Both the position numbers and the translations under genes were made by a program. The notes beneath the pieces are model-generated. The model had not been told where the DNA came from, made no database searches, and saw only the letters and a program-made list of their open reading frames with translations. This document shows, piece after piece, positions 6,498 to 53,556 of a DNA stretch of 64,000 nucleotides (the stretch's first letter is position 1; each line of letters begins with the position of its first letter). Source of the stretch: a bacterium. GTDB taxonomy: Bacteria; SAR324; NAC60-12. Where the stretch lies: contig CBDBHR010000030.1 in assembly GCA_965205865.1 (NCBI GenBank), positions 515,031-579,030 of the forward strand, read 5' to 3'.

Positions 6498-6530
6498 TTC
6501 TCTTGAAGCGGTATTTGGTATCAGCTCTGA

Positions 6531-10548: not shown

Positions 10549-12780
10549 ATGAGTTCTGAGCCACAAGCAGGTACATCCGCAGAGATTTCCTTCAAAAAGG
10601 GAAGTCTCCCAAAGGCGCAATCCAAAGTGGGAAAAAAGCTGAAAGATCCACTTTCCCGGCCTAAGACGATTCCGCTCCCATCCGATTGGAGCAAATGCGA
10701 CCCCGGTGAGCTCACGCACCCTTCGTTATATATCAACCGGGAATTGAGCTGGTGCCAATTCAATATGAGGGTATTGGATCAGGCATTCGACGCCAAACAT
10801 CCATTACTGGAGAGAGTTAAATTTTTTGCCATCGTCGCTTCCAACCTCGATGAATTTTTTATGATCCGCATTGCCACCTTGCTGCGCATCATCCGCTCCG
10901 ATCTGGAAAATATTACGCCCGACGGGTTGAGCACTACCGAAGCGTTTTGGGCTATTCATGAAGAAGTCGATAAAATGATGGCCAAACAGCGGGAATGCTG
11001 GAATTCTGTTTTGCGTCCTCTGTTGGCTGAAGAATCCATTGAAATCCTTGAGCCCTCGGAATACACGCCCGGAGTCCGCCAATACCTGGCAAATTACTTC
11101 AAAACGGAAATATTTCCGATTCTCACTCCGCTCGCCTTTGATCCCTCCCATCCCTTTCCGCACATTTCCAATCTCAGTCTAAATTTTGCAGTGGAAGTGC
11201 GTCATAACGAGCAAGTCAAATTCGCTCGGGTCAAGATCCCCCCCATCTTTCCCCGTTTTATTGCCCTTCCTGAGGAATTGAGTCGTAAATCAAAACGAGG
11301 AGCAGTTGGCAATCGCTTTGTCTTTGTGGAAGACGTGATAAAAATCAACATGAGTGCCTTGTTCCCCGAAACCCAAGTGGAAGCCATTTACCTTTTCCGG
11401 GTGATTCGAGACACGGACATCGAAATCCGGGAAGATGAAGCCTCGGATTTGCTGGAATCGGTGAGCGAAGGATTGAAACAGATTCGTTATGGCGAGATAT
11501 CCCGACTGGAAATCGAAGAAAAGATGCCACAGCGGATTTTGGAGATCCTCATCGAAAATTTTCATGTTCCTGAGAGCGCGATTACGGGGACCCAAGACCG
11601 TATGGGCTATGCGGATTGGATGACGTTGATGAAGATCAATCGTCCCCGTCTGAAAGATTCATTGCTGAAGCCCTTTGTCCTCTTTGATTCTATTGAAAGT
11701 CCTGATGCGATTTTTGAAAAAATCAAATATGAAGATTATTTTCTGCACCACCCTTATGATTCTTTCAGCGCGCTGGAAACTTTTTTGAAAGCGGCAGTGG
11801 ACGATCCCCAGGTGATTGCCATCAAGATGACCCTCTATCGCGTGGACGCCGATTCTCCCATCGTGGAATTGTTGACAAAAGCCCGTGAAATTGGAAAACA
11901 GGTAGCCGTTTTGGTAGAGTTGAAAGCGCGTTTTGATGAAGAAAGCAATATTTTGTGGGCGCAACGGATGGAGGCGGCCGGCGTGCACATGGTCTATGGG
12001 GTTTTGCGTCTCAAAACCCATTGCAAACTCTGCTTGATTGTTCGCAAGGAAGCCGAAGGCATCCGACGCTACGTCCACATCGGCACGGGAAATTACAATC
12101 AAGTCACCTCTCGAATCTACACGGATTTGGGGATATTTACTGCGCACCGGGGGATTGTGGAAGACGTCTCCCAGATCTTCAATTACCTGACAGGCTATTC
12201 AAACCAGAAGTCATTCAGAAATTTGCTGGTCTCTCCTGTCAGTTTTCGTTCCGGTATCATCGACCTCATCGAAAAGGAAACGGAGCGCGCCAAAGCGGGT
12301 CACTCGGCGCATCTCATTTTCAAAATCAATCAAATCACCGATCCCCCTGTCATCCAAACGCTCTACAAAGCCTCGCAGGCAGGCGTGAAGGTGGATTTGA
12401 TCGTCCGTGGAATTTGCTGTTTACGCCCCGCTATTGCCGGCATCAGCGACAACATTCGCGTCATATCCATCATCGGCCGGTTTTTAGAGCATTCGCGGAT
12501 TTTTTATTTCCACAACAAGGGGCAGGAAGAAATTTACATTGGCAGTGCCGATCTGATGGAACGCAACTTGGACAGACGGGTGGAAGTGGTCACTCCCATT
12601 TACAGCAGAAAAATCAAAAATTACTTGAAAACCCACGTCCTCGATATCATGCTGAAGGACAATCAACAGGCCAGTGAACTGCAGATCAACGGGGAATACA
12701 TCGATGTATCTCCTTCCAAGGCCACTCCCATCAGTACCCAAAAATATTTACTGGACTGGCACGGTTCCCGTCTCAATTGA
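10549..12780 (+). CDS. ppk: Polyphosphate kinase 1. The annotated start may be too far upstream (about 58-aa N-terminal extension relative to typical PPK1).
   Basis: PPK1 N-terminal signature YINRELSWCQFNMRVLDQA..NLDEFFMIRIA; PLD-like C-terminal domains. Confidence 0.85.
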   Translation: MSSEPQAGTSAEISFKKGSLPKAQSKVGKKLKDPLSRPKTIPLPSDWSKCDPGELTHPSLYINRELSWCQFNMRVLDQAFDAKHPLLERVKFFAIVASNLDEFFMIRIATLLRIIRSDLENITPDGLSTTEAFWAIHEEVDKMMAKQRECWNSVLRPLLAEESIEILEPSEYTPGVRQYLANYFKTEIFPILTPLAFDPSHPFPHISNLSLNFAVEVRHNEQVKFARVKIPPIFPRFIALPEELSRKSKRGAVGNRFVFVEDVIKINMSALFPETQVEAIYLFRVIRDTDIEIREDEASDLLESVSEGLKQIRYGEISRLEIEEKMPQRILEILIENFHVPESAITGTQDRMGYADWMTLMKINRPRLKDSLLKPFVLFDSIESPDAIFEKIKYEDYFLHHPYDSFSALETFLKAAVDDPQVIAIKMTLYRVDADSPIVELLTKAREIGKQVAVLVELKARFDEESNILWAQRMEAAGVHMVYGVLRLKTHCKLCLIVRKEAEGIRRYVHIGTGNYNQVTSRIYTDLGIFTAHRGIVEDVSQIFNYLTGYSNQKSFRNLLVSPVSFRSGIIDLIEKETERAKAGHSAHLIFKINQITDPPVIQTLYKASQAGVKVDLIVRGICCLRPAIAGISDNIRVISIIGRFLEHSRIFYFHNKGQEEIYIGSADLMERNLDRRVEVVTPIYSRKIKNYLKTHVLDIMLKDNQQASELQINGEYIDVSPSKATPISTQKYLLDWHGSRLN

Positions 12781-16229: not shown

Positions 16230-16472
16230 TCACTCTCCTGAGGAATCCAAGATCTCTCGCGTTGCTCGAGACGACAGGGTATTTTCGGTTGAAAAATCTA
16301 TTGACGATATGAGTTCCGCATGTGCGCCGGCTCATTAATAAAACGAGATGGATTTTATAGCAATCGGTTAATTGCGCAAGATAAAAACATCGCTTGAATA
16401 CGCGCCCTCAGAAACGATATTCGTAAAGGATCGACCGGTAATGAGGAATGTCTTTCTTCGTACGCTAGAATA

Positions 16473-16505
16473 CCCCTCCCCTTGAGGGAGGGGCTAGGGG
16501 AGGGG
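16473..16505. repeat. REP-like G/C palindromic element.
   Basis: cccctccccttgagggaggggctaggggagggg in the frdA-rlmH intergenic region. Confidence 0.8.
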
Positions 16506-16674
16506 TAAACCGATTTCAAAGTCTGCCCGAAATCCATTTTGCTCATCGAATTCAGGGCGAAATGGAAGAGTGGGGCCATCCCTGGTATGATAAACAATCA
16601 GACGCAAGAAACCTGAAGGCGCCCTGCTTTTTTTCTGCTGAATCACTCATACTGAACAAGCGGACTGCTGAAAA

Positions 16675-26702: not shown

Positions 26703-28064
26703 TCATGCTGCCTTCTTTTGCGGTTCCGACTGCCGCATTTGCTCCTGGCTATACATGCAAAGACCCAACACGAGCAAGACGGCAATTTGCACTTCTCCAT
26801 CCAGAAAATTATTCTCAAAAATCCCGGCCACTAAAAACCCCAAAATACCTGCGCTTCCTCCCAACAAGAGGCAGGGGTAAAAAGTCCATCTCCGGCTTTT
26901 CCGCAAAGCAGTCCAATTCTGCTGAAAAAGCAGAATCCAAATCAACGAATAGCTGAGCAAACTCATCAAACCTCCACTGACCCAGATCTCCAGGTAAATA
27001 TTATGTACGCCCGACTTCAGCCCCGTCAAAAAACGATAGCCGCTGCGTTGACTGACGAGTTCGCGGTAGCGAGGCATCACCTCCACTCTATTGCGCGCGC
27101 CGATCCCCCACCACGGGTGATCCCGGATGACATGCCATCCTGCTTGCCACAACATCAACCGCTCTTGATTGGCAACCGGCATGAAGGCGCTGCTGAAGCG
27201 TTGCCAGAGCAGTCCTGCATGGGAGTCGGCTCGTTGCGCTTTTCTTCCGGTGAATGTATAGCTGAACAGCATCAATACGACGACCAGGCTGCCTGCCAGT
27301 CCCAAAATGAGAGGAATCCTGCGGCCAAAACGAAAACTCAAAACAAAGCCGGCAAACGCGCTGCCCAGCCAGATACTGCGTGACATGGAGAAAACGACGG
27401 CCGCCAACATGATCAAGACCACCAGGCCATACCATTTTCTCACTCTTGCCGGCAAATCCGGACAAAGAGCAAGGGCCGCCATCAAAGGGGCCATCAGCAG
27501 TAAATATCCTCCATAGGTCAAAGCGTGAGTGAAATTCCCTCGGGCGCGAAAGACAGTCTCTTCGCCAATTTTGTAGGAACCTAATTGCTGGTCGGGAGGA
27601 CGCAGCCAATCCGCTCCGCTGAAAAACTGGATGACGCCATAAAGGGCGATGAGGCATAAAAATACGGAAAAAAAATGAAACCAGCGGGGAAGATTCAGCT
27701 GAGCAAAACTCAAATAGAGCGCGAATGGCAAAAACAATCGCCAGTTTTCCAAAAGAGCGCTTCCGCCCCCGCGCGTATAGGGGGAAAGCAATCCGGAAAT
27801 CCAGACGCAAACGATAAAAAGCAGGATCGCCCGCCACAAACCGGCAGGCGCCTGCCAATAGTGACGGTTCAGCGTCACGTTCAATAAACAGATCAGATAA
27901 AGACCGAGAATGGTCGCTTCGCTACCGGAAATAGAGAAAGTGCTGAACAGCGCAAAGCAATACAGCAGCACACGGTTGCAGGCAGGTGATTTGGCGATGA
28001 TCAGCTGCCGGAAACGAAGTCCTGAGGAAGTATTTATTGGCTGATTCGTATTTTCGCTTTGCAT
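26703..28064 (-). CDS. O-antigen ligase/polymerase family membrane protein (WaaL/Wzy_C-like).
   Basis: 453-aa polytopic membrane protein with the large periplasmic-loop pattern of the O-antigen ligase family. Convergent with tRNA-Phe. Confidence 0.6.
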   Translation of the reverse strand: MQSENTNQPINTSSGLRFRQLIIAKSPACNRVLLYCFALFSTFSISGSEATILGLYLICLLNVTLNRHYWQAPAGLWRAILLFIVCVWISGLLSPYTRGGGSALLENWRLFLPFALYLSFAQLNLPRWFHFFSVFLCLIALYGVIQFFSGADWLRPPDQQLGSYKIGEETVFRARGNFTHALTYGGYLLLMAPLMAALALCPDLPARVRKWYGLVVLIMLAAVVFSMSRSIWLGSAFAGFVLSFRFGRRIPLILGLAGSLVVVLMLFSYTFTGRKAQRADSHAGLLWQRFSSAFMPVANQERLMLWQAGWHVIRDHPWWGIGARNRVEVMPRYRELVSQRSGYRFLTGLKSGVHNIYLEIWVSGGLMSLLSYSLIWILLFQQNWTALRKSRRWTFYPCLLLGGSAGILGFLVAGIFENNFLDGEVQIAVLLVLGLCMYSQEQMRQSEPQKKAA

Positions 28065-28080: not shown

Positions 28081-28584
28081 TCAGCGCCATGTGCAATCCT
28101 GTTTAAATCCCTTTGGACATTCCTCCAAGACCTCCCACCGATTTCCATCGTCGGAAGCCGTGTGCAAACACTTCAATAATACGAATTTGGTCTGATTCGC
28201 CGTCTTCCTCGTCCCTTCGGCATAAGCGAAAGGCACGGATATAACAGCAGCCACGGCAGCCCCCAGCAAAGCGCCTTCCGCGGAACTCTTGTCCAGATCG
28301 GGAGCTACGACCGTGCCAAGAACGGCTCCGACCGTGGCGGCTTCCGTAACATTCGTAATGGTTTCCAGTTCCCCCTCCTGAGACGCCGTGTTTTGACGAT
28401 TCGCGGCAGCTTGCCGGCATACCGCCAATGCCTGTGAATAATACGCTTCGTTGCCTTCAAAAACCAAAACGGCAGGCGTATATTGACCTGCGCCCAAGCC
28501 AGTCACGTTGACCGTACCCGACTGCTGAGCGCCACATCCCGTCAGAACGACGGATATGATAACGATCCATAGATAATTTCTCAT
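28081..28584 (-). CDS. Putative lipoprotein (signal peptide with LTGC lipobox).
   Basis: MRNYLWIVIISVVLTGCGAQ. Gly/Ala-rich mature protein with C-terminal Cys pairs. Confidence 0.5.
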   Translation of the reverse strand: MRNYLWIVIISVVLTGCGAQQSGTVNVTGLGAGQYTPAVLVFEGNEAYYSQALAVCRQAAANRQNTASQEGELETITNVTEAATVGAVLGTVVAPDLDKSSAEGALLGAAVAAVISVPFAYAEGTRKTANQTKFVLLKCLHTASDDGNRWEVLEECPKGFKQDCTWR

Positions 28585-28836
28585 GATTTCTCCTTTATTA
28601 TTCGTACGCGAAGATACGTGGATGATTATTACACTATTTACCGGATTGAGAGCATCAATCCATCTTACTACCTCAGGCAAGCAGCGACGGCCCTTATGCC
28701 AGACTGCAGGAAAAGGAATTTCGCAAAAAATGAACTCGACCGCCGGCAGCTTTCAAAGACTATCATGCAACAACAAGCTTGCAAACATGAAAGATTCATC
28801 CCGGTAAATTCGTATTATCGAGAATCCTTCTTTGTT

Positions 28837-28884
28837 TTACCTCGCGCCGGTCGATACCGGCCATATTTCTGAAAGAGCAAACAT
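28837..28884 (-). pseudogene. 15-codon remnant of a wecA-like gene start (MFALSEIWPVSTGAR*).
   Basis: Near-identical to the first 13 codons of the intact wecA-like gene at 54697 (MFALSELWPLSSG). Part of the duplicated block 28851-29060 vs 54667-54860. Confidence 0.5.
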
Positions 28885-28932
28885 TTGCGAACAATTCGTG
28901 GTTCCCGTTTCAAAAGCGCTCCGAGTCCTGAT

Positions 28933-31125
28933 TCAGGACGCGTCTTTCGCTTTTTTTTCGGCACGTTCCTCAATGACTTTTTCCTGCAGGAAAGAAGGCA
29001 TTGCGACGTATTTTTCAAATTCCATCGTAAAGGTGGCTTTTCCGGCACTGATGGAGCGAAGTTCGGTGGCATATCCGAACATTTCCAAGAGAGGCACTCC
29101 CGCACGGACCACCGTGCTTTCTTCGCCGACCTCCGAACCATAAATCACCCCCCGTCTGGAACTCAGATCTCCAATCACCGTCCCCTGGTATTCGGCTGGA
29201 GTTTCCACTTCGACTTTCATGACCGGTTCCAGAAGAATCGGTCGGGATTTGGCGATGGCTTGTTTCATCGCCTCCCGGCAGGCAAGGCGGTAGGCCAGAT
29301 CACTGGAATCGACGTCATGGTATTTGCCATCAATCAGGGTAACCTTGATCCCGGTCACGGGAAACCCCGCCAGCGGGCCTTTTTCCATGACGTCCTGAAA
29401 TCCTTTTTCGCATGAAGGAATATGAGCGCTGGGAATAGAGCCGCCAAAAATATCGTTGATGAATTCAAAACCGTTTTCGTGTTCTGCCGGCAAGGGCTCG
29501 ATAGTGCCACTGACTCCGGCAAACTGACCTGCTCCGCCCGTTTGTTTCTTGTGTAAATGAACAAATTTCGCGGCTTGGGTGATCGCTTCCCGGTAGTTGA
29601 CTCGAGGTGCGCCAACCAAGACGTCGACTTTATATTCACGCTGGATCCGTTCCAGGTATATTTCCAGGTGCAACTCTCCCATCCCTGAAATATGGGTTTC
29701 TCCCGACTCCTTGTCCACCTTGACCTTGAAGGTGGGATCTTCACGCATGAACCGTCCCAGGGCCTTGCTCATCCTGACCTGCGATTCATTGTTTTTGGTA
29801 TCCACCGCCAGTGAAATCACCGGTTCGGAGACGTGCATGGATTCACACGCCAGCTGAATCCCGGAGCCGCAAAATGTATCCCCGGAGGCGCACTCGACGC
29901 CAATCATAGCCACGATATCCCCTGCTTGCGCCTTGTCTATATTCTGCCTGTCATTGGCATGCATGCGTACCATTCGACCCACGCGAATCTTCTTGCCGGT
30001 GCGAATGTTGACGATTTGATCCCCTTTGCGCATGGAACCCTGGTAGATCCTCGTATAGGTCAGTTGCCCGAATTGCTCTTCTGTCAGCTTGAATGCCATT
30101 GCAACCAGCGGTAACTGTGGGTCCGGCAGCAATTCGACGCTTTGATTTTCGTCTGCAGGATTCTTTGCCAAAGCCGGTTCCGCTTCCAGCGGGGAAGGCA
30201 GGTAGTGGCAAACCGCGTCCAAAAGCGGTTGCACCCCCTTGTTGCGGAACGCCGAACCCAAATAGACCGGACAGAGTTGCAACGACTGCACCCCTTTTCT
30301 GACAGCCACGTGGATCGCTTCTGCGGAAACTTCCTTTTCCTCCAGCAAATCCTCCATCAGTTGGTCATCGAACATGGAAACCGCTTCCAGCATCTCCCTG
30401 CGCCTCTCCTCGGCCGCCTCAATCGAGTCGGCAGGAATACCTTCCACGCGCAATTTCTCTCCTCGCGTCCCCTCGAAATAAATGGCCTTCATGCTGACCA
30501 GATCCACCACCCCTCGATGCTCCTCTTCCAGACCAATCGGAATCTGCATGGCGACCGCATTCAATTCCAGGATCTCGCAAAGGTCTTCGACCACTCGTGC
30601 GGGATCCGCCCCCCGGCGGTCCAGTTTGTTGATAAAAGCCAGCCGGGGCACCCGGTAGCGTTTCATCTGACGATCCACCGTGATCGATTGCGACTGTACC
30701 CCGGCAACTCCGCAAAGGACCATGATCGCGCCATCCAACACTCGCAAGGAACGCTCCACTTCAACCGTGAAGTCCACATGCCCCGGGGTGTCGATGATGT
30801 TGATCGTCTCTCCCTTCCAAAAAACGGTGGTGGCGGCGGAAGTAATGGTGATCCCCTTCTCTTTTTCCAAATCCATATGATCCATCGTCGCCCCCGCTCC
30901 CCCGCCATGCACTTCCCCGATCTTGTGAATCTTTCCCGCGTAATACAAAATGCGCTCGCTCAAAGTGGTTTTGCCACTGTCGATGTGGGCTGATATACCG
31001 ATGTTTTTCATACGTCCAATGCTTCTTTGCAGGATATCGTCGCACGACAATTCCCGACTTTCCGACAGGTCACTGCCGTATTTATACGAAGGTTCAGAAA
31101 CGATTACCTCTCCTTGATTTTCCAT
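28933..31125 (-). CDS. fusA: Elongation factor G paralog (EF-G2-like translational GTPase), not in an str operon context. Alternative start at 31011 (MKNIGISAH).
   Basis: G1-G4 GTPase motifs ([21 protein letters not shown]) and EF-G domains II-V. 730 aa. Confidence 0.85.
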
Positions 31126-31283
31126 GAATTTCTACTGCTTTCTAATTAGGGTTTGCCCATCTGCGTAATAAAAGTTAAGCTGCATTTTTTATATCATCTA
31201 TCAAAGGATCGCAAGTTTTTTTCATATCATGATGCGCTCCTCATTGCTATCCCTCCGTTGCAGTGAAGCAAGAGGACGCGAAT

Positions 31284-31650
31284 AAGGAGCCCGAAACATA
31301 GTCGCCGGTGATCGAATCACGGGAGGAAAGTCCGGGCAACGCAGGGCAGGATGCTGGCTAACAGCCAGGCAGCGCGAGCTGACGGAAAGTGCAACAGAAA
31401 ATAAACCGCCGATGGCTTTTTTGAGCACAGGCAAGGGTGAAAAGGCAGGGTAAGAGCCTACCGCGGCTCTGGTGACAGAGTCGGCAGTGTAAACCCCATC
31501 CGTTGCAAGTCCAAATAGAACCGCGTCGAAAGATGGCCCGTCCAGCGGTTGGGTAGGACGCTCGAGGTTCCTGGCAACAGGGATCCCAGATAAATGACTA
31601 TGGTCTGCCGCAAGGCAGGAACAGAACCCGGCTTATTGCGGGCTCCGCTC
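31284..31650 (+). ncRNA. rnpB: RNase P RNA (bacterial type A).
   Basis: P4 GGGAGGAAAGTCCGGGC; ACAGAAAATAAACCGCC; GGTAAGAGCCTACC; GCAAGTCCAAATAG; 3' ACAGAACCCGGCTTA. P1 pairing ggagcccg (31286-93) with cgggctcc (31639-46). Confidence 0.75.
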
Positions 31651-33408: not shown

Positions 33409-34398
33409 TCAAAACAAATCGGGTTTGAGCGTATGGTTTTGCAATGCATGCATGGTACTCGAAGAAATCTCAGACAAAAAGCGAGACACGGTGGCCACTT
33501 CGTTGGCAGGAAGCGCATATCGGGATATGAATTCAACGGAAAAATTGCCGGCAAGCGGAGCATGCTCTTCGGATGAAAGAATCCCCCTCCCCTTGAGGGA
33601 GGGGTCGGGGGTGAGGTGTCGCGGGGAGGGGTAATACGGCATTTGGGCCATGATTTGTCGGCAAGCCGCTTCATTGGGATCGAGTATCACCGCCTGGCGT
33701 CCCAACTCTTGAAAGGCTTTTTCAAATAATTTTGCCTGGTATCCATAATGGGTACATCCCAAAAAAGCATAAAGGGGTTTGAAAGGTCGGGACGTTTGCG
33801 CCAGGGCAATTTTGATGAAGTTCGTGATGCTCTGATAGACCTGTTTTCCTTCAGGGTCATTGGAGATCATGGTGGCCACTCCCGGAAGGGCTCGGGAAAT
33901 CATGCGATCGCCGGCAATGCCGGCTGCTGACAGCTTTGTGGCGTAAATCGATTCCGCAATGGTGGTCTCGGCAGCAAAAATGAATACGCCGGATGCGGGA
34001 TTGGCGGAGAGGTGGCGGACAATCTGGCAGACGCCGGCGGAAATCATACCTGCCGGCGAAAGGGCAAAGCGACGGCTTTGCTTGTCCTGGAAAAAAGCCG
34101 TCTCCGAGAGCAAGGCGGACAGAGTATGGCAGGCGATAAAAATGAAATCAGGCTGGTACCAGCGCTCGATCCCCGCCAGGACTTTGTCGAAGAAAAAAAT
34201 TTTCTGCAACCGCGATTCCATTTGATTGAATCCCCAATCATTTTCGGGAACGGCATTCACGTATTTGAATTCGACGGAAGCGGAGCGCCACCTGTTTGGG
34301 CGCTTGGCGGAACCAGACGCTCCGCCGACGCGGCGAGGGGTCAGTAAGGCGCAGATGGACAGGCCACCCAGTCCGGAATCGACAATCGCAATTTTCAT
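33409..34398 (-). CDS. murI: Glutamate racemase. The ORF runs about 60 codons past the expected MurI C-terminus, through a REP-like element.
   Basis: MKIAIVDSGLGGLS N-terminus. The conserved CTHYP-type motif (LGCTHYGY) is present. The C-terminal tail (PSPRHLTPDPSLKGRGIL...) is encoded by repeat DNA. Confidence 0.8.
   Translation of the reverse strand: MKIAIVDSGLGGLSICALLTPRRVGGASGSAKRPNRWRSASVEFKYVNAVPENDWGFNQMESRLQKIFFFDKVLAGIERWYQPDFIFIACHTLSALLSETAFFQDKQSRRFALSPAGMISAGVCQIVRHLSANPASGVFIFAAETTIAESIYATKLSAAGIAGDRMISRALPGVATMISNDPEGKQVYQSITNFIKIALAQTSRPFKPLYAFLGCTHYGYQAKLFEKAFQELGRQAVILDPNEAACRQIMAQMPYYPSPRHLTPDPSLKGRGILSSEEHAPLAGNFSVEFISRYALPANEVATVSRFLSEISSSTMHALQNHTLKPDLF
33581..33631. 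repeat. REP-like G/C palindromic element (degenerate, compound), lying in-frame inside the murI 3' extension.
   Basis: tccccctccccttgagggaggggtcgggggtgaggtgtcgcggggagggg. Confidence 0.75.
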
Positions 34399-38633: not shown

Positions 38634-41075
38634 ATGATAAAAGAAAATAAAAAAATGCTCGTCAACGTCGATGATGACGAAACGCGTATTGCCGCGGTCA
38701 CCGGGAATACCCTGGACAATCTCCACGTCGAACAGACGGGAACCAATCGAATGATTGGCAACATCTATCGTGGCAAGGTGGTCAAAGTGCAGAGTTCCTT
38801 CCAGGCCGCTTTTGTGGAATACGGGGCGGAGCGTCACGGGTTTCTGGCGTTTTCGGACGTCAACTTTCAGGTCATCAAAGCTGCCGATAATCCGCTTAGT
38901 AAATCTGCCATTGAAAAATTTCTCAAGCCCGGACAATGGGTCATGGTACAAGTGACCCGCAATCAAATAGGACGCAAAGGGGCGAGTCTGACGACCCATA
39001 TCAGCCTGCCGGGACGTTTTCTGGTCTTCATGCCCAACAGCAACAAGGGAGGCGTTTCCAAGAAAATCGAGGATTTGGAAACCCGGGCGCGCTTGAAGCA
39101 TTTGCTCGAGGGACTGTGTGGCGAGAAAGATTCGGCAATCATCCGCACTGCCGGAGTGAACCGGGGCGCATCCGAACTGAAGCGGGATTTCATGGCCCTG
39201 CGCCGCAAATGGAACGAAATCCTGAGAAATTATGAAAGCGCCGCCGGACCCGGACTTTTGTATGAGGAAGAGGACGTGGTGGTGCGCACCTTGAGAGACT
39301 ATTTTATCGACGACATTGCTGAAATCTGGATTGATCACCCGGAAACCTTTCAACGAGCCCGGGAGTTTTTCAAGGCCAATATTCCCAACCGCCAGAAGCG
39401 CCTGCAATTTTATTTGGGAGAACGTTCCCTGTTTTCGGATTATGGCATTGAAAACCAAATCGAACAGCTCAGCAGTAACCATGTGCCACTTCCTTCAGGA
39501 GGGAGCCTGGTGATCGATCCCACCGAGGCCTTGGTGGCGATCGACGTCAATTCAGGACGTTACAACCAGAGCCATGATATCGAAGAGACGGCACTGCGCA
39601 CCAATCAGGAGGCGGCCGAGGAAGTCGCCCGTCAGCTTCGTTTGCGGAATCTGGGGGGCTTGATCGTGATTGATTTCGTCGATATGACTGGCGAGGAAAA
39701 CCGCAATGCCGTTGTCAGAACGATGGAAGAGCGCTTGCAGGACGACAAAGCCAAGTGGACCCTGGGGAGTATTTCACAATTCGGTTTGCTCGAAATGAGC
39801 CGGCAGCGCATCGCCAATGCGCTTTCCCAGGAAATGAAAACCACCTGTCCCACTTGTGGCGGGATGGGGGAAGTTCTTTCGGTTTCCTCCCTGGCCAACG
39901 CGGTTTTGCGGAAAATCCGGGATCTGGCTGCAACTGCGGTGCGCGGGAGTGGCGAGATCATTGAAATCCATAGCCTCGTTCCGGTGGAATTATCCAATCA
40001 TTTGTTCAATAAGAAACGGCAACAGTTGGATGAACTCGAAGTTGAATTCGGCATCAAGATAGTGCTGACGGCGGATCTTTCCGCAGATCCCGGAAAATTG
40101 CCGGATTTCGAGGTGCTCAACAGAACGGCCGGTACCTCGGAAACGGTCGGTGGAAGCGGGAAAAAATCATTGCGGGAAGAAGAGAAGACTCCCAAGGACA
40201 AGGAAGAGAAAGAAAAATCAGGAAAAAACCGGCGTAAAAAGGAAAAACCGGCGGCTCTTTCACAGCCATCCGAAAGCATGGAAGAAGCAAAAACCGCAGT
40301 CGACCCGGCGGAAGAACCGGTGGATTCCAATAAGGATTTACCTGGCGAAGTGGAAAAGCCACCAAAACCCGTCCCCTTGTATAGCAGCGCCCACCAGCCT
40401 GGGCCCGCAGAGCAGGCAGGCGTCGCGCCACCGGCGCTTCCCTCCGCAAAAGCGAATCCCCCTGATGAGAATGGCAAAGACGTTCCTCCGTCCACCGTGC
40501 TTTTCAGCAGTTCCCATCGTGATTCACGGCAAAACCGGATCAGTCCCCCTCCCCCGGCCCCTCCCTCCAGGGGAGGGGAATTGATCGATCGCGCTCCGGA
40601 GGTTGCGGAACCGGTGGATCATATCAGCGCGGCCGGGGTTGCCGTTTCCGAGCCGGTGAACGAGCCCGCCGCCGTGGAGGTTCCGCCACCAGTTCCCGTC
40701 GCCGGGGAAAAGGCGCCGGCCAAGCCACGCGGCTCCACGAGGCGAAAGCCGACTCAAAAAAAAGAAACAGCCGAGCCGGCCACGCGGAGTGAAAAAAAAC
40801 CGAAGCCAAAACCCCGCAATGCTCCCAAAAAAGCGGAAGATACTGCGGAAAAGAAGGACGAAAGCGCAGCCGTGACTGCAAAGGCGGGCAAGAAAACTGC
40901 TGCAGAAACCGTGAAGAGCAAATCGAAAAAAACGACGACTCCTTCAAAAGCAGAACCCACTGCCACTGAAAAGGCGGCCAAAAAAGCTCAGCCGACCACC
41001 GCTAAAAAGGCAGCCGGGACGAAAACCGCAAAGTCGGGCAAAGCAGTCCGCCAAAGCGGGAAAACAACGGAGTGA
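38634..41075 (+). CDS. rne: Ribonuclease E (RNase E/G family) with a Lys/Ala/Pro/Glu-rich disordered C-terminal scaffold region.
   Basis: S1 domain (GNIYRGKVVKVQSSFQAAFVEYGAERHGFL); DNase I-like catalytic region; Zn-link CPTCGGMG; low-complexity C-terminus. Contains an in-frame REP-like insert at 40544-40579. Confidence 0.85.
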   Translation: MIKENKKMLVNVDDDETRIAAVTGNTLDNLHVEQTGTNRMIGNIYRGKVVKVQSSFQAAFVEYGAERHGFLAFSDVNFQVIKAADNPLSKSAIEKFLKPGQWVMVQVTRNQIGRKGASLTTHISLPGRFLVFMPNSNKGGVSKKIEDLETRARLKHLLEGLCGEKDSAIIRTAGVNRGASELKRDFMALRRKWNEILRNYESAAGPGLLYEEEDVVVRTLRDYFIDDIAEIWIDHPETFQRAREFFKANIPNRQKRLQFYLGERSLFSDYGIENQIEQLSSNHVPLPSGGSLVIDPTEALVAIDVNSGRYNQSHDIEETALRTNQEAAEEVARQLRLRNLGGLIVIDFVDMTGEENRNAVVRTMEERLQDDKAKWTLGSISQFGLLEMSRQRIANALSQEMKTTCPTCGGMGEVLSVSSLANAVLRKIRDLAATAVRGSGEIIEIHSLVPVELSNHLFNKKRQQLDELEVEFGIKIVLTADLSADPGKLPDFEVLNRTAGTSETVGGSGKKSLREEEKTPKDKEEKEKSGKNRRKKEKPAALSQPSESMEEAKTAVDPAEEPVDSNKDLPGEVEKPPKPVPLYSSAHQPGPAEQAGVAPPALPSAKANPPDENGKDVPPSTVLFSSSHRDSRQNRISPPPPAPPSRGGELIDRAPEVAEPVDHISAAGVAVSEPVNEPAAVEVPPPVPVAGEKAPAKPRGSTRRKPTQKKETAEPATRSEKKPKPKPRNAPKKAEDTAEKKDESAAVTAKAGKKTAAETVKSKSKKTTTPSKAEPTATEKAAKKAQPTTAKKAAGTKTAKSGKAVRQSGKTTE
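40544..40579. repeat. REP-like G/C palindromic element inside the rne coding sequence (in-frame).
   Basis: tccccctcccccggcccctccctccaggggagggga, translated SPPPPAPPSRGGE. Confidence 0.8.
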
Positions 41076-41157: not shown

Positions 41158-42699
41158 ATGTCGACCCGCAAAACATCCGCACCGCAACAGCAAAGTAAGG
41201 GGGAAACCCGGGCGGGGGTCCGCTCTTCCAATCCCCTCGAGGCGCGTTCCGCGCTTTATGGTCTGTTGCCTTCGATCAGGGAAGTCGATCATTATCTGAA
41301 AGCGCGCGATCTGCACTTTGGTAAACCGGTGCGCGCCCATGTCAACGGGGTTCTGGACGGATTGCGGGAAGAAATTTCAGCTTCAATCAATCCCCCTCCC
41401 CTGGAGGGAGGGGCCAGGGGAGGGGGATTGGCGGAGGGTGGAGAGCCGGCGGTCCCCCCTTTGCCGTTTTCCAGCAAAGAGCAAATCCTGGAGCATCTGG
41501 CTGCGATCGTCAGGCAGCGGGGTCAGATCAGTATTCGTCGCGTGATCAATGCGACCGGCGTGGTCATTCATACCAATCTGGGCCGCGCTCCTATTTCGCG
41601 GAAATTGATCGATTCGATTCTGCCGCTGCTCTCTTCTTATGCCACCGTCGAGTACGATTTGGAATCCGGCAAACGCGGCACCCGTGGCGAGGGAGTGAGG
41701 AATCACCTGCGCTTTCTATCGGGAGCGGAGGACGCGCTGGTGGTCAACAACAATGCCGCGGCGCTTTATTTGATGCTGGTGGCCCTGGCTTACGGAAAGG
41801 AAGTGATTGTTTCCCGCGGGGAACTCATGGAAATAGGTGGATCCTTCCGCGTTCCGGACATCATGCGGGCTGCCGGCGTTCGACTGGTGGAAGTGGGAAC
41901 GACCAACCGCACGCGTCTTTCCGATTATGAAAAAGCCATCAACGGCAATACGGCCGCCTTGCTGAAAGTTCATCCTTCCAATTACGAGATGCGGGGATTT
42001 GTCGAGGAGACGCCGGTTGCCCAAATTTCCCGGTTGGCGCGCGAGCATGAACTGTTCGCGTTCCATGATCTGGGAAGCGGCAATTTCTATCAATTCGAAC
42101 AGCCGGCCTTGCGGGGTATCTCCACGGTGCAGTGGGAAGTACGCAGTGGAGTCGACCTGCTGACCTTCAGTGGAGATAAATTACTGGGCAGTACCCAGGC
42201 AGGCATCGTGGTTGGTCGTAAAAATCTGATCCGCCGACTTGCCCGCCATCCCCTGTTCCGCGTGCTGCGTTTGGACAAGATCACCATGGCTTTGCTGGAA
42301 GTCCATCTGGCAGCCTATTTTCAAATGGAGACACTGGCCAGCGCCATCCCCACCATCGGACTATTGGAACAATCGAGCGACGCCATCCGGCAAAAGGCGG
42401 AGACCGTGCTGCGCTCCCTCAGCATTCCTCCTCGATGCGGCTGGTCCTGCAAGTTGGCAGCGGCAGCTTCCCTGAGCGGAGGTGGGGCTTTGCCGGAAAT
42501 TTATCTCGATTCCTATTGCCTGGTGCTGGAACACGTCACTTTGCCTGCTGAAAAAATCCAGCAGTTTTTCCGACAACAGGAGATACCGGTCATTGCAAGA
42601 GTGCGGAACAACCAGGTCTGGCTGGATTTCCGCACGGTTTTTCCCGAGGAATTTCCCCTGATCACTCGCGTTCTTCATCAACTGTTCGCTGCTCAATGA
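41158..42699 (+). CDS. selA: L-seryl-tRNA(Sec) selenium transferase.
   Basis: SelA motifs INATGVVIHTNLGRAP, VVNNNAAAL, VSRGELMEIGGSFR, FSGDKLLG. Contains an in-frame REP-like insert (NPPPLEGGARGGGLAEGG) in the N-terminal linker. Confidence 0.85.
   Translation: MSTRKTSAPQQQSKGETRAGVRSSNPLEARSALYGLLPSIREVDHYLKARDLHFGKPVRAHVNGVLDGLREEISASINPPPLEGGARGGGLAEGGEPAVPPLPFSSKEQILEHLAAIVRQRGQISIRRVINATGVVIHTNLGRAPISRKLIDSILPLLSSYATVEYDLESGKRGTRGEGVRNHLRFLSGAEDALVVNNNAAALYLMLVALAYGKEVIVSRGELMEIGGSFRVPDIMRAAGVRLVEVGTTNRTRLSDYEKAINGNTAALLKVHPSNYEMRGFVEETPVAQISRLAREHELFAFHDLGSGNFYQFEQPALRGISTVQWEVRSGVDLLTFSGDKLLGSTQAGIVVGRKNLIRRLARHPLFRVLRLDKITMALLEVHLAAYFQMETLASAIPTIGLLEQSSDAIRQKAETVLRSLSIPPRCGWSCKLAAAASLSGGGALPEIYLDSYCLVLEHVTLPAEKIQQFFRQQEIPVIARVRNNQVWLDFRTVFPEEFPLITRVLHQLFAAQ
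41391..41427. repeat. REP-like G/C palindromic element inside the selA coding sequence (in-frame).
   Basis: tccccctcccctggagggaggggccaggggaggggga; identical to the core unit of the 48.4-kb tandem array. Confidence 0.85.
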
Positions 42700-47628: not shown

Positions 47629-47730
47629 CAAACAGTGGGCTTCCCGATTCACCTCTTCCTGCCGGGCTGTTTGCTCCTGTTTACCGGGAATATCCTGCTC
47701 CCGGTTGCAATTCCGGCGCTCATTCTTTTG

Positions 47731-47847
47731 TTGATTCCGCATCATTCATCCTTGCCTGGTAGGGGGAACCACATTGTTACGATGCCGGTGCCTGTTCATT
47801 TCTTGATTCCGCATCATTCATCCTTCCCTGGTAGGGGGGAACCACAT
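47731..47847. repeat. Two direct copies of a 44-45-bp repeat (47731-47774 and 47803-47847) separated by 28 bp.
   Basis: ttgattccgcatcattcatccttgcctggtagggggaaccacat and ttgattccgcatcattcatccttccctggtaggggggaaccacat. Confidence 0.85.
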
Positions 47848-48209: not shown

Positions 48210-48382
48210 CTTTTGTTTTAATAGAGGTAATGGTATTTGGGGTCATATTGCTCGGTGTCTTCTCGACCGCAGAGAGAGATCTTCAAGGGTCCTCCGGAAA
48301 CCGGGATTTCAATGTTTCTCTCTCCTCAGGTTTCGCTGGCTTGGACCAAATAGTCAATTCATACGAAGTTGCGCATATAAAG

Positions 48383-48694
48383 AATCCCCCTCCCTTGGAG
48401 GGAGGGGCCAGCACGGGAAAATCCCCCTCCCCTGGAGGGAGGGGCCAGGGGAGGGGGACAGCAGCCCAAAGAATCCCCCTCCACGCCAAGAATCCCCCTC
48501 CACGCCAAGAATCCCCCTCCACGCCAAGAATCCCCCTCCCTTGAAGGGAGGGGCCAGCACGGGAAAATCCCCCTCCCCTGGAGGGAGGGGCCAGGGGAGG
48601 GGGACAGCAGCCCAAAGAATCCCCCTCCACGCCAAGAATCCCCCTCCACGCCAAGAATCCCCCTCCCCTGGAGGGAGGGGCCAGGGGAGGGGGC
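48383..48694. repeat. Nested tandem array of REP-like palindromic elements.
   Basis: Higher-order unit: two palindromic cores (89 bp in total) plus 3 copies of aatccccctccacgccaag, then the same 89 bp plus 2 such copies, then one terminal palindrome. The two 89-bp blocks differ by a single substitution. Confidence 0.9.
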
Positions 48695-48823
48695 GCGAAG
48701 CTGGAAGATCCCCCCCGACGTCAAAAAATTCACTACTCGTCGGGTTGTCTTGATTATCCTAAAGATTTCAGTATTACTCATTGAATCACAACTATTTTTT
48801 ATTATTTTCCCTATTCCGGAGCC

Positions 48824-50872: not shown

Positions 50873-50961
50873 ATGAGGCTGGCACGGAAGGGGTTGAGGT
50901 GAATAAGGTCTCGGAAGGAGACCATGACTCAGTCCTATGTCTTTTCTAACAATTAAATTCA

Positions 50962-50996
50962 AATATGCAAGCCTGACCCCTTTTTTGACCCCTTTT
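50962..50996. repeat. Left inverted repeat (IR-L) bracketing the three-gene cassette.
   Basis: aatatgcaagcctgacccc is a perfect 19-bp reverse complement of 53331-53349. Followed by a duplicated tgacccc(t)ttt motif. Confidence 0.85.
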
Positions 50997-51278
50997 CTCC
51001 AAGAGAAGAAAACTGAAAGATGAAAATATCCCACTTTTACCTTGATTAGTCTTCCAAAATACGAAAAAATCATGAAAAATTGTCCTTTACTCCCAGATTT
51101 CCAGTTGTTATCGTTTTCAGTGATTTTCTTATGTTGATGATTTTCAGATATTGTCTAGATGTCATCATCCTCAATGATTTTTATTTTCCTAAAATGTCAC
51201 CTCTTCCGGGTCTTGTAGTATCCGGAGGTTAGGGAACATACGGAGCTTGAAACACAAGAAATTCGGAGGAAAAACCCC

Positions 51279-52049
51279 ATGCGTCCGCATCGCCGTTACA
51301 AAAACCCACCCATAGAAGAGGCGCTTTGTGAATTTCGCTTCAAACCGGGACGGGACTGGGACCTCTTCATTCCAGGTAAACTCCATTCCAAAATCGATGA
51401 GGAATATGGTGGTAAGCCACGGGAACAAAAAGTTGTCGAGTTGGGATTGGAAGCCCAGGGAGGCAAGCCTCCCAATCTGAGATATGGTGAAGCGTTGTCA
51501 ATTATCCAACTGGTCACGAAGGATGGCAAAAGGATAGTTGGGGTTGGACCCGACATACTCAACGTTCACATGCTGCGTCCCTATCAAAATCCTCTTGATC
51601 CTGAACGCAGTGGATGGGACGAGTTCAAACCCCGGATTTCAGAAGCGCTCGATGCATACTGGAAGGTGGCTAAGCCAATTGGTGTATGTAGGATTGGTAT
51701 TCGGTACATAAACAAAATCCTCATACCACAGAAAACGGTAGAGGTCGAGGAATATCTCAAGTGTGCTTTGCCGGTTGTAAGAGGATTGCCAGATCGCCGG
51801 AAGCACTTTGTGAGCCGTGTTGATTATGACTATGGAGACGGTATGCGTCTGGGTTTGTCTCAGCGATCGATCAAGGCCCCTCCGGATCACATGGGTTTTC
51901 TGCTTGATCTTGACGTCATTTGGGAGAACTCCAAATCGCTTGCGCAGGACAAAGCATTGGAAAAAGTAGGTGACTTGCGCACTCGTGAAAGAGAAGCATT
52001 CGAAACTGTCATCACGGATAAAGCCAGGGAACTCTTCGATGCCGATTGA
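51279..52049 (+). CDS. Uncharacterized protein, TIGR04255-family-like, first gene of the three-gene operon.
   Basis: 256 aa; GGAGG RBS 8 nt upstream. N-terminal Y..PPIEEALCEFRF pattern recalled as typical of TIGR04255 proteins (from memory, not searched). Confidence 0.55.
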   Translation: MRPHRRYKNPPIEEALCEFRFKPGRDWDLFIPGKLHSKIDEEYGGKPREQKVVELGLEAQGGKPPNLRYGEALSIIQLVTKDGKRIVGVGPDILNVHMLRPYQNPLDPERSGWDEFKPRISEALDAYWKVAKPIGVCRIGIRYINKILIPQKTVEVEEYLKCALPVVRGLPDRRKHFVSRVDYDYGDGMRLGLSQRSIKAPPDHMGFLLDLDVIWENSKSLAQDKALEKVGDLRTREREAFETVITDKARELFDAD

Positions 52050-52761
52050 AAAATACGTACCTGCGCGTTCCAGAACCTCGACCTTTGATTCGGACACATT
52101 CTTTAAGATGGACGAATCGGGAGTGGCCTATGCCTCCCCGCATTGGCTCACCGAGGGAAAGGAATCGTTTGCGGCTTCTTTAGACGCCGAGACACCGCAA
52201 AAAGCGATGGCGGATCTGTTCGAACTATTCCCTGAGCAAACGACAGTGGTCCCGGATAGTACTTTATGGGTTGCGCTTATTTTTCCTGTACTCGTGGATG
52301 CAGCCTGCTTCGAACCGGCAGTCTCGCAACAGGCGCCTGTTGAAGGTCGAGAACAAAAACTGCTTGCGGCCAAACTGTGGACGTCCTTTGAAGCCGACAC
52401 CCTTGAAGACGGAATGGAACATCCAGCCGAGCAGATTATTGGAAAGGCGTTGCGATCCGAGGAAGAACTGCGCGTTCTTGAATGGTTCAGGGCTTTTGCT
52501 TTGGATGCTGAACGGCCGAGCTTTGCGGCATCGGTTCTGCGTTGCCTGGGACGTCAAATGCATCCGGGGACGGATTCATGGCGTGTTGAACTCGTGCGTG
52601 ACGCGCTGGCCATGGATGATGTGGAGATCAGGGACGCAGCCGCACAAGCAGCTGAATCGTGGGGTGGCCGGGATCTGATCGAGGTTCTAACGTCTCATCG
52701 TGAGCCGGAACCTTGGCTTCGAGACTACATTCGGGACATCATTGATGACCTGAGGGAGTAG
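52039..52761 (+). CDS. Uncharacterized acidic protein (possible helical-repeat fold), second gene of the three-gene operon.
   Basis: ATG overlaps the upstream stop by 11 nt (translational coupling). 240 aa; no recognizable catalytic motif. Confidence 0.5.
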   Translation: MPIEKYVPARSRTSTFDSDTFFKMDESGVAYASPHWLTEGKESFAASLDAETPQKAMADLFELFPEQTTVVPDSTLWVALIFPVLVDAACFEPAVSQQAPVEGREQKLLAAKLWTSFEADTLEDGMEHPAEQIIGKALRSEEELRVLEWFRAFALDAERPSFAASVLRCLGRQMHPGTDSWRVELVRDALAMDDVEIRDAAAQAAESWGGRDLIEVLTSHREPEPWLRDYIRDIIDDLRE

Positions 52762-52764
52762 GGG

Positions 52765-53280: not shown

Positions 53281-53308
53281 TCCATGCACTGCTAATGGTT
53301 GTACGAAT

Positions 53309-53350
53309 TGAAATGGGGTCAGGCTGAAATGGGGTCAGGCTTGCATATTG
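53309..53350. repeat. Right inverted repeat (IR-R) of the cassette, with internal tandem duplication of gaaatggggtcaggct.
   Basis: ggggtcaggcttgcatatt (53331-53349) is a perfect reverse complement of IR-L. The 16-mer is duplicated at 53309-53324 and 53325-53340. Confidence 0.85.
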
Positions 53351-53532
53351 GTATTTGGGAATTGTCTCGAGTGCAGGAGTTCTTCAGCCAACCTTGGATC
53401 GACTCTCGTCTGGGTTTCCAAGGCAATGCGTTGTCGGCTCAACGAGGAAAGGTCTCTTTGATAATACTGAGCCTCCTCCTCTAAGAGCCCGCCCTTTTCC
53501 GTATAAAAGAGCGTCATCCTTCCTCATATATA

Positions 53533-53556
53533 AATATGCAAGCATGACCACATTTT
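53533..53556. repeat. Third, diverged copy of the IR sequence in IR-L orientation, just downstream of the wecA-like gene.
   Basis: aatatgcaagcatgaccacatttt vs IR-L aatatgcaagcctgacccctttt. Confidence 0.6.

Follow-up and report, generated by a model that had tools for sequence, protein, structure and literature searches.

Two loci in a SAR324-related bacterium, 26 kb apart and here called A and B, are probably the scars of a duplication followed by reciprocal loss that moved a wecA-like gene (wecA) to a new chromosomal neighborhood. Both lie within the window, the stretch of 64,000 nucleotides that was analyzed. Retention is complementary: locus A has an intact EF-G gene, an intact rnpB gene, and a 13-codon wecA stub, and locus B has an intact wecA along with 38 codons of EF-G and about 30 nt of rnpB. 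The alignments support descent of the A and B copies from one contiguous rnpB(5')-EF-G-wecA block, each now without the reciprocal gene. The homologies, the junctions, the pseudogene decay, the fixation in all close relatives sampled, and the gene arrangements of the outgroups can be read directly from the DNA; how and in what order the events took place we infer.

When the repeat was aligned against the window, positions 28847-29051 at A matched 54660-54861 at B with 84.4% identity over 205 columns (29 mismatches, one 3-nt gap, E 4e-61). On the minus strand, the A repeat reads through the last 39 codons and stop of EF-G (28933-29051), 48 nt, and wecA codons 1 to 13 (28847-28884). The original prediction had described a direct repeat of about 200 bp (28851-29060 and 54667-54860) at roughly 80% identity, covering about 13 wecA codons and about 37 EF-G codons, and this description holds with slightly higher identity and adjusted ends. 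A second piece pairs B 54865-54926 with A 31187-31247 (62 nt, 80.6%, E 7e-11). For the B segment, the A segment was the top match in the whole window, with a score of 62 against a shuffle maximum of 32. In addition, B 54934-54955 and rnpB 31291-31312 are identical at 19/22 positions, and none of 2,000 shuffles attained that score. The match between 54900-54960 and the rnpB 5' flank and start (31226-31320), also proposed earlier, is thus real, but its coordinates have to be replaced by those of these two pairs. In total, five collinear A/B segments are 81 to 92% identical (245/288 positions, 85%), and copy B corresponds to copy A without the 2,135 nt that form the body of EF-G and without 38 nt upstream of rnpB. 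A search of the 64-kb window past the ends of the repeat unit, which covered a possible wecA 3' remnant at A and possible matches elsewhere to the right flank of B, found no further homology.

Profile matches agreed with the alignment that A holds intact EF-G and rnpB with a short wecA stub (15 codons in the original prediction) and that B holds intact wecA with fragments of the other two. The EF-G gene at A (28933-31125, minus strand; 730 aa) scored 962 bits with TIGR00484 (cutoff, 659) and has all five EF-G domains, and its score with the EF-G2 model NF009377 was 424 bits (cutoff, 890). The label fusA2 in the original prediction is tentative. About 35 aa at the N terminus of the protein form a conserved extension, its synteny is shared with the relatives L001, L085, L086, and L107 to L109, and its clade is located outside the str operons in L002, L006, and L008. 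The last 119 nt of the gene (28933-29051) are the part duplicated at B. An EF-G protein identical to that of the window is present in the sequence collection as P0244. The bacterial class A RNase P RNA gene rnpB (31286-31650, plus strand) is intact and full length (Rfam RF00010, 319 bits), with roughly its first 30 nt duplicated at B. Between the two genes lies the EF-G upstream block that was duplicated at B (31187-31247, minus strand) and is partly conserved in L001. It is followed by 38 nt directly before rnpB +1 (31248-31285, plus strand), which are present in A and missing from every B copy in a seven-copy alignment and would be the expected site of the rnpB promoter.

On the other side of EF-G, the leader, or 5' untranslated region, of wecA is present as a copy (28885-28932, minus strand) that meets EF-G no more than about 7 nt from the stop codon (junction J1). 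This part of the repeat had been described as an intergenic stretch; instead, its 41 to 48 nt represent wecA's own leader, as the roughly 41 nt preceding the wecA ATG share homology with the native leader of wecA in the relative L087, where the upstream gene encodes a permease and not EF-G. The stub that follows (28837-28884, minus strand; reading frame MFALSEIWPVSTGAR closed by a stop) consists of 13 wecA-homologous codons (28847-28884), two unrelated codons, and the stop codon, with wecA homology ending at 28846/28847 (J2). The stub is truly wecA derived, because the N-terminal motif M..LSE..WP...GF is kept in wecA orthologs down to 55% identity.

At locus B, the intact wecA (53573-54697, minus strand) encodes a 374-aa polyprenyl-phosphate sugar-phosphate transferase of the GT4 or MraY-WecA family, as indicated by PF00953 and by its orthologs, and its first 38 nt are within the repeat. 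The protein scored 99.8 bits with PF00953 (Glycos_transf_4), above the cutoff, and 82.8 bits with TIGR02380 (ECA_wecA), far under the cutoff of 326. It is thus a family member with only a putative specificity for GlcNAc-1-P, and wecA-like is the safe name. Upstream of the gene are its functional leader (54698-54744, minus strand), identified from the alignment of the copies and from homology to the L087 leader; the EF-G 3' pseudogene remnant of 38 codons plus stop (54745-54861, minus strand; 117 nt); and the copy of the EF-G upstream block, which faces wecA (54865-54926, minus strand). A TGnTATAGA motif in this copy is followed after about 5 nt by the internal deletion junction (J3, about 54861-54865). 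The rnpB 5' fragment (54929-54958, plus strand) comprises roughly RNA positions 1 to 30, that is, only the 5' strands of P1, P2, and P3, without the 38 nt that precede rnpB at A. At about 54948-54955 (J4), it is fused within a GGTGAT microhomology of 6 to 8 nt to a fourth scar, absent from the original prediction: the last 31 codons of a DUF4743 plus NUDIX gene, here termed X (54945-55037, plus strand; tblastn, 77% over 31 aa; blastn, 79% over 90 nt). In L087, X is intact and lies upstream of upxY.

Both loci adjoin surface-polysaccharide genes, as had been noted earlier. Near A, a Wzy_C/ligase-like gene was identified by profile match (26703-28064), and from 55239 onward B is followed by UpxY, Wzz, Wzy_C, Wzx, and GT genes. 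The head of this operon is a UpxY/RfaH-like NusG paralog (55239-55796, plus strand; PF02357; NF033644, 82 bits, below the cutoff), and the operon, which holds wzz, Wzy_C, wzx, and GTs, is divergent from the relocated wecA. The window's wzz has two single-base insertions.

The two-locus structure was confirmed as genuine and is not an assembly artifact. The A and B scars recur with the same junctions in eight or nine long-read contigs that are independent of one another and represent at least five samples. Both scars are fixed in all sampled close relatives: the B scar is 92 to 96% identical in L081 to L084 and L089, and the A stub is 97 to 98% identical in L085 and L107 to L109. One contig (ERZ25067264 ctg836152; 1.14 Mb, 19x) carries both loci, with wecA at 229833 and EF-G at 254897, about 25 kb apart and spaced as in the window. 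The long-read contigs of relatives do contain indel noise, for example, a degraded second wecA in L089, and the window's own wzz has insertions, so that a misjoin or collapsed repeat in one copy, or an insignificant similarity, had to be weighed. Such an explanation is extremely improbable given the matching junctions across samples, the presence of both scars on a single well-covered contig, and a 15% divergence between copies that is unlike that of a misassembled duplicate. The similarity, which the original prediction had allowed might disappear upon proper alignment, persisted with the E values given above. The second wecA of L089 was also considered as a third copy of the unit and rejected; it is a 70%-identity, indel-ridden tandem repeat on a 3x contig and is most likely an artifact.

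Gene order in relatives bears on which locus is older. In the closest outgroup lineage, represented by L001 and L086, the order is SMC-...-rnpB-EF-G-199aa-ligase-tRNAs, with neither wecA nor a stub; in common with locus A, both have SMC, genes for 339 and 526 aa, rnpB, EF-G, the 199-aa gene, the ligase gene, and the tRNAs. Judging by this synteny, EF-G and rnpB have their conserved location at locus A. In L087, wecA is located inside an operon with the order X-upxY-orf69-permease-wecA-wzz. Gene X is intact there and reduced to the 31-codon remnant in the window and in L081 to L084, and B is apparently the derived state. With rnpB and EF-G lacking wecA in L001 and L086, and with wecA in the UpxY operon of L087, the contiguity of rnpB, EF-G, and wecA would therefore be derived and transient and belong to the stem lineage of the strain group that includes the window; the outgroups amount to effectively one lineage, which leaves the polarity of wecA's position uncertain. 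The proposal of an ancestral rnpB-fusA2-wecA locus that was duplicated and reciprocally eroded thus stands with respect to descent from a single block and reciprocal loss but not as a deep ancestral arrangement. A contiguous rnpB-fusA2-wecA order, the check suggested for it, was found in none of the sampled genomes, in which L001/L086 and L087 have different arrangements. Likewise, neither an intact wecA directly after EF-G nor a second intact EF-G was present in any sampled relative. Sampling is sparse, and the missing intermediate therefore weakens the reconstruction of event order, not the homology. A 17/24 match (MAFFT) between the post-EF-G spacer of L001 and the stub was treated as unproven chance similarity.

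The lack of any wecA trace at A in the outgroup lineage, together with the shortness (86 nt) and abrupt end of the patch at A, would also fit a reverse order of events. In that case, wecA was never at A; a copy of rnpB5'-EF-G was inserted just upstream of the wecA leader at the polysaccharide locus, where the junction of the EF-G stop with the leader would have arisen. The leader and 13 codons would later have been copied to A by an exchange resembling homology-facilitated illegitimate recombination, with homology at one end only, in the 3' end of EF-G, and an illegitimate other end. Integration that is homologous at one end and illegitimate at the other is an established mechanism (PMC3240628). 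We nevertheless consider this order unlikely: extra steps are needed to invert the rnpB'-EF-G'-wecA block and move it upstream of upxY, into X, whereas duplication and reciprocal loss explains B directly from a single block with the three pieces in the observed order and orientation. A former wecA site would in addition make functional sense at A, where EF-G, the wecA stub, the 199-aa gene, and the Wzy_C gene are codirectional.

The EF-G 3' piece differs by 14 to 19% between A and B and by 19% between A and the outgroup, and the split is therefore old and not the product of a recent duplication; recombination between the two loci, the alternative raised in the original prediction, is not needed. 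Differences between the A and B pieces fall on codon positions 1, 2, and 3 in the ratio 2/8/6, with no third-position bias. The remnant has an in-frame stop in L081, and its among-strain identity is 0.910, compared with 0.912 at wecA third codon positions. By these measures, the EF-G remnant at B is nonfunctional and evolves at about the neutral rate. Branch lengths for the EF-G piece, from only 119 sites, were about 0.08 for the B remnant and about 0.06 for the selected A copy. A B branch not much longer than that of A could reflect a time when B was a functional second EF-G, an origin in a donor genome, or sampling noise.

An origin in a donor genome would mean that copy B came from a related strain or species with wecA after EF-G, integrated illegitimately into X, and replaced the resident initiating transferase. 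The 15% divergence between A and B, far above the 2 to 8% among sampled strains, and the outgroup-like states retained in the B remnant (ATCACGGAA, no AAA insertion) would agree with this, as would the location of B in a polysaccharide locus, a classic target of lateral replacement (PMC3715488, PMC7685785). However, an old duplication within the genome would be equally expected to leave such ancestral states in place, and GC content is uniform, at 51 to 53% throughout. wecA has diverged from L087 about as far as its neighbors upxY and wzz have, the three genes being at a similar level (74 to 84% aa). No donor-like arrangement was present in any collection searched. The best match to the window's EF-G in genome contigs was 83% aa, with no conspecific; metagenome contigs yielded relatives of wecA at 44% identity or less only; and exact-protein lookups of the window's EF-G and wecA returned no record. 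The stub at A independently requires a former wecA at A in the bacterium's own lineage and would need a separate explanation. We therefore regard horizontal origin as improbable and prefer duplication within the genome.

Under duplication and reciprocal loss, wecA with its own leader would have stood directly after the EF-G stop codon in the stem lineage, in the gene string EF-G, wecA, 199-aa gene, and Wzy_C/ligase-like gene, with rnpB divergent upstream. The duplicated segment would have extended from in or beyond wecA through EF-G and rnpB. The simplest route would be tandem duplication of a block of roughly 26 kb (wecA-EF-G-rnpB-core genes); a duplicative insertion of 3.5 kb into the NUDIX gene X is the alternative, and the scars are explained equally well by either. 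In the left copy, the wecA body would then have been deleted, with 13 codons remaining. In the right copy, one deletion of 2,135 nt would have taken out the EF-G body, another would have joined rnpB position 30 or so to X codon 262 via the GGTGAT microhomology, and a third would have removed 38 nt just upstream of rnpB. The outcome would be the present one, with wecA divergent beside the UpxY-led wzz/wzy/wzx operon and EF-G and rnpB still at their conserved position. The 22 kb between the copies consists of core genes such as SMC, XseB, RNase E/G, SelA, and LepA, and no integrase, mobile element, or sign of foreign DNA was found in this segment or in its GC content. An integrated island with att repeats was rejected, as the interval holds core genes without an integrase and, in the outgroups L001 and L086, continues without a break into locus A. 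The left breakpoint has a hairpin (GCCGGTATCGACCGGC) in which the changes from A to B look compensatory; it was considered as a functional or recombinogenic element and discarded, because the pairing does not hold across L081 to L085.

Tandem duplication with random loss is a classic cause of gene-order change in animal mitochondrial genomes. The present case resembles it in that a block would have been duplicated and complementary copies lost, short pseudogene remnants lie in the predicted order and orientation, and gene order would have been altered, with wecA shifted across a 22-kb block. It differs in its setting in a bacterial chromosome, in the postulated block of about 26 kb of core genes, and in a tandem intermediate that was not observed. 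In O-antigen and capsule clusters, gene remnants are known as rearrangement fossils, such as wzy in Salmonella groups B1 and D1 (PMC3715488; for Escherichia coli, see the review PMC7685785). Here, too, junction fragments at a polysaccharide locus record its rebuilding, with function taken over elsewhere, but the pieces are from housekeeping genes (EF-G, RNase P RNA, and NUDIX) rather than polysaccharide genes or IS elements, and neither an IS nor an H-repeat is involved. The rnpB/X joint in 6 to 8 nt of GGTGAT, and scar ends that are all abrupt and without repeats or recombinase sites, are similar to those of microhomology-mediated or homology-facilitated illegitimate recombination (PMC3240628); in contrast to the latter, no incoming foreign DNA was found, and the mechanism is deduced from junction sequence only. 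Direct repeats that carry a gene end and an RNA-gene fragment and flank a 25.8-kb segment also recall att-site integrative elements. However, the interval is core genome, syntenic in the outgroup and without an integrase; divergence between the repeats is 15%; the RNA gene is represented by its 5' end; and the unit has an internal 2.1-kb deletion.

The scars are thus a real and clean example of ordinary genome rearrangement and represent no new mechanism or system. Their value is as a clean, datable record of a bacterial gene changing its chromosomal neighborhood without a mobile element, in which four illegitimate junctions and three housekeeping-gene remnants let the probable steps be reconstructed. 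Within an uncultured lineage related to SAR324, the gene for the initiating transferase of a polysaccharide pathway would have moved between two loci that are both polysaccharide related. In annotation, the wecA stub (28.8 kb) and the EF-G, rnpB, and NUDIX fragments (54.7-55.0 kb) are best marked as pseudogene remnants rather than entered as small ORFs or partial RNase P matches.

The 62-nt EF-G upstream block raises a separate question of transcription. On the minus strand, 31187-31247 contains TTGCGA ... TGATATAAA, which by eye only resembles a -35 element and an extended -10 element; its general form is TTG(C/T)GA-15 nt-TGnTATA(A/G)A. The block is a candidate EF-G promoter. A sigma-70 consensus scan found no site in either copy (31000-31400 and 54500-55400), and promoter and terminator consensus scans gave nothing usable. 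At B, the block is the most conserved segment of the scar, with an among-strain identity of 0.968, compared with 0.91 to 0.945 for neutral proxies, over only 62 nt. Because it is the best-conserved part of the scar and the deletion junction falls just after the extended -10-like motif, we tentatively suggest that the block may have been kept at B as a promoter from which transcription would cross the 117-nt EF-G remnant into wecA, although this is rather doubtful. Somewhat less likely again is that the deletion was selected to end after the EF-G promoter, which would place wecA on a captured translation-factor promoter with a 5' untranslated region from an EF-G pseudogene fragment. If this were true, polysaccharide initiation, with wecA as the committed step of the adjacent pathway, would be coupled to growth-rate-type regulation.

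The complete rnpB gene (31286-31650, + strand; RF00010, 319 bits) and a full five-domain EF-G gene (28933-31125, - strand; TIGR00484, 962 bits versus a cutoff of 659) lie at locus A, where EF-G is followed 3' on the same strand by a 199-aa gene and a Wzy_C (O-antigen ligase/polymerase-like) gene and then by two tRNAs. Locus B encodes a Glycos_transf_4 (WecA/MraY family) protein (53573-54697, - strand), which we call wecA-like because it scores below the WecA equivalog cutoff; the right flank holds a UpxY/RfaH-like NusG paralog, wzz, a Wzy_C gene, a Wzx-type flippase, and glycosyltransferases. The 22 kb separating the copies encode SMC, XseB, RNase E/G, SelA, LepA, a sulfatase-family protein, and similar genes and contain no integrase. 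The direct repeat claimed in the original prediction was confirmed, with a repeat finder and local alignment placing it at 28847-29051 (copy A) and 54660-54861 (copy B) with 84.4% identity over 205 columns (29 mismatches and one 3-nt gap; BLASTN E = 4e-61). Immediately to its right in B, a block at 54865-54926 aligns with 31187-31247, upstream of EF-G (62 nt, 80.6% identity, E = 7e-11), its top-scoring site window-wide (score of 62 versus a shuffled-query mean of 23.9 and maximum of 32). Positions 31291-31312 of rnpB are matched by 54934-54955 at 19/22 nt, a score reached by 0/2000 shuffles, and the 38-nt stretch between these two matches (31248-31285) was found in A only. Taking 29052-31186 and 31248-31285 out of copy A (28847 to ~31318) thus yields, segment by segment, copy B (~54660-54958). 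The A/B identity was 35/38 for the wecA 5' end, 38/47 for the leader, 99/116 for the EF-G 3' end, 50/61 for the EF-G upstream block, and 23/26 for the rnpB 5' end (245/288, or 85%, for all five segments), and no homology was found past either end of this unit.

The wecA 5' remnant (stub) at A reads MFALSEIWPVSTGAR followed by a stop. Its N-terminal motif, M..LSE..WP...GF, is kept in wecA orthologs down to 55 to 62% identity, which argues that the 13 codons are truly wecA derived and not a chance ORF. The next part of the repeat was originally described only as intergenic, and its identity was missed. About 41 nt before the wecA ATG in the relative L087 (wecA 74% identical) are homologous to it despite a permease gene, not EF-G, lying upstream, so the stretch is wecA's own leader. 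EF-G and this leader are joined no more than ~7 nt from the stop codon of EF-G. Because this joint is common to both copies, a contiguous rnpB(5')-EF-G-wecA block must once have existed; it would have been duplicated, with complementary parts then lost from the two copies.

Relatives of wecA with 91 to 94% identity (81% for P0003 in L089, with a disrupted C-terminus) were found on five contigs from four samples (L081-L084 and L089), with upxY and wecA divergent as in the window and the entire remnant block of B present at 92 to 96% identity. Locus A with the same stub was found in L085 and L107-L109 (EF-G relatives at 97 to 98%). L084 and L108 both come from a single 1.137-Mb, 19x contig (ERZ25067264 ctg836152). 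There, the starts of wecA (229833) and EF-G (254897) share a strand and are ~25 kb apart, as in the window. The two-locus structure is genuine and fixed in this strain group. Artefact or chance similarity is refuted by the significance of the repeats and by the recurrence of the scars in the relatives' contigs, with both loci on one contig.

On the outgroup side, L001 (a complete MAG chromosome; EF-G 83% identical in amino acids to that of the window) and L086 have in common SMC, a 339-aa gene, a 526-aa gene, rnpB, EF-G, the 199-aa gene, the ligase, and tRNAs, a string showing that locus A is where EF-G and rnpB have their conserved position. Neither wecA nor the stub is present at locus A in L001 and L086; in L086, EF-G is only 82 nt from the next gene, and clear homology picks up again where the 199-aa gene has its promoter. 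The distant relatives L002-L013, L088, and L090 showed neither rnpB linkage nor wecA linkage. Given the outgroup data, the rnpB-EF-G-wecA contiguity appears to have been a derived feature of the strain group's stem lineage. The original interpretation is supported in part: duplication with reciprocal erosion is upheld, and an ancestral status of the locus is not. L087 probably belongs to the same sister lineage as L001 and L086, judging from REP-like repeats that the three have in common, and carries on a single strand, in order, X (a DUF4743 plus NUDIX gene), upxY, orf69, a permease gene, wecA, wzz, and wzy. In the window and L081-L084, X is reduced to its final 31 codons (54945-55037, 77% aa identity), a remnant that was overlooked in the original prediction and is fused to the rnpB fragment, and orf69-permease-wecA is absent between upxY and wzz. 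These two features indicate that locus B is the derived arrangement. The rnpB/X joint sits in microhomology (rnpB, ..GTCGCCGGTGATCGAATC; X, ..GCAACCTGGTGATGATCGAC; B, ..GTCGCTGGTGATGATCGAC). Integration of an island is refuted by the core gene content and outgroup synteny.

The age comparison rests on the 119-nt EF-G 3' piece, for which divergence is 0.14 to 0.19 between A and B copies, 0.19 between A and L001, 0.21 to 0.25 between B and L001, and 0.02 among the A copies. Outgroup states kept in B and changed in A are ATCACGGAA, the lack of an AAA insertion, and GCC at one codon. Together, these data place the A/B split at about two-thirds of the distance back to the ancestor shared with L001, long before the sampled strains diversified. 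The A/B differences by codon position 1/2/3 are 2/8/6, the L081 remnant has an in-frame stop, and identity of the remnant among strains (0.910) equals that of wecA third positions (0.912); the EF-G remnant at B is a pseudogene in neutral decay. A horizontal origin of copy B is improbable, as GC content is uniform (51 to 53%), wecA divergence is in step with that of its neighbors, no donor was found, and the stub would still demand a wecA at A. In the reverse order of events, EF-G would first have been copied to wecA and an HFIR-like patch (mechanism in PMC3240628) then copied back to A; this order is unlikely, since more steps would be required to yield the observed locus B.

Under duplication followed by complementary loss, wecA and its leader would have stood in the stem between EF-G, which they directly followed, and the 199-aa and Wzy_C genes, and two routes fit the scars equally well. 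By tandem duplication and random loss, a ~26-kb segment comprising wecA, EF-G, rnpB, and core genes would have been duplicated in tandem, after which three deletions would have removed the wecA body from copy 1, the EF-G body from copy 2, and the sequence from rnpB position 30 across the second core block to X codon 262. Alternatively, a 3.5-kb wecA-EF-G-rnpB' fragment would have been inserted duplicatively into X, followed by two deletions. Either route would leave wecA beside the UpxY operon and divergent from it. Of all scar segments, the 62-nt EF-G upstream block is the most highly conserved among strains (0.968 versus 0.91 to 0.945 for neutral proxies, in a small sample). Its wecA strand contains TTG(C/T)GA-15 nt-TGnTATA(A/G)A, and the 2135-nt deletion starts ~5 nt past TGnTATA(A/G)A; consensus scans called no promoter in the block. 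The conservation and the deletion start fit selection for a retained promoter, and we tentatively consider that selection may have favored deletions sparing a candidate promoter that had previously driven wecA by co-transcription. The 38-nt stretch that B lacks is located where the rnpB promoter would be expected, consistent with a silenced rnpB fragment. Gene order changes by duplication and loss are well known, as are microhomology joints. Gene remnants recording polysaccharide-locus history are likewise well known (PMC3715488, PMC7685785); compared with these, the A/B scars are a tidy new instance, whose only unusual features are that the relics come from EF-G, RNase P RNA, and a NUDIX gene and that mobile elements play no part.

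EF-G (730 aa) has a conserved N-terminal extension of ~35 aa, which homologs with as little as 77% identity also carry. In every relative checked (L002, L006, and L008), its clade is found outside a str operon, preceded instead by IspF, AIR-synthase-like, or menaquinone genes. The 199-aa ORF (28081-28680) probably starts ~30 codons later, around 28593; its homologs in L001, L085, and L086 are 167 to 168 aa long and align from residue 30. It matched no Pfam/NCBIfam family, with only a faint Gly-zipper hit recorded for L086. In L001 (9400-10000), repeat elements totaling ~400 nt are inserted ahead of the EF-G start, after the conserved block close to rnpB; these repeats are also found in L086 and L087 (88 to 93% identity). 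An intergenic G/C-rich palindromic REP-like family (CCCCCTCCCCTGGAGGGAGGGGCCAGGGGAGGGGG) occurs in the window at 6457-6502, 16455-16506, 33566-33622, 40541-40588, 41375-41430, and 48380-48700, the last an array of 19-nt tandem units (AAGAATCCCCCTCCACGCC) with a 146-nt duplication. A tandem 72-nt direct repeat occupies intergenic sequence after the LepA gene (47704-47838; 63 nt aligned, 84% identity), with a variable form in L084 too.

In L089, a second tandem copy of the EF-G remnant end, leader, and wecA directly follows the first wecA (10942-12383). It is degraded (70% identity, many indels) and sits on a long-read contig with 3x coverage; an artefact of reads or assembly is the probable explanation, a real tandem duplication being the alternative. 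Two additional single G residues (56326 and 56424) break the chain-length determinant gene wzz (55914-57211) into ORFs of 155 and 277 aa. Both are absent from L081, L084, L089, and L087, each with one 421- to 431-aa gene; either wzz in the window is a pseudogene through frameshifting or the consensus contains indel errors. Downstream of wecA is a ~2.4-kb cassette (50955-53356) with three ORFs (51279-53280) without a family match. Inverted repeats of 30 nt (AAATATGCAAGCCTGACCCC...) border the cassette, and the repeat occurs a third time at 53525-53555. This spot varies by strain, with a PemK toxin in L083, HipA in L089, and other small ORFs in L084.
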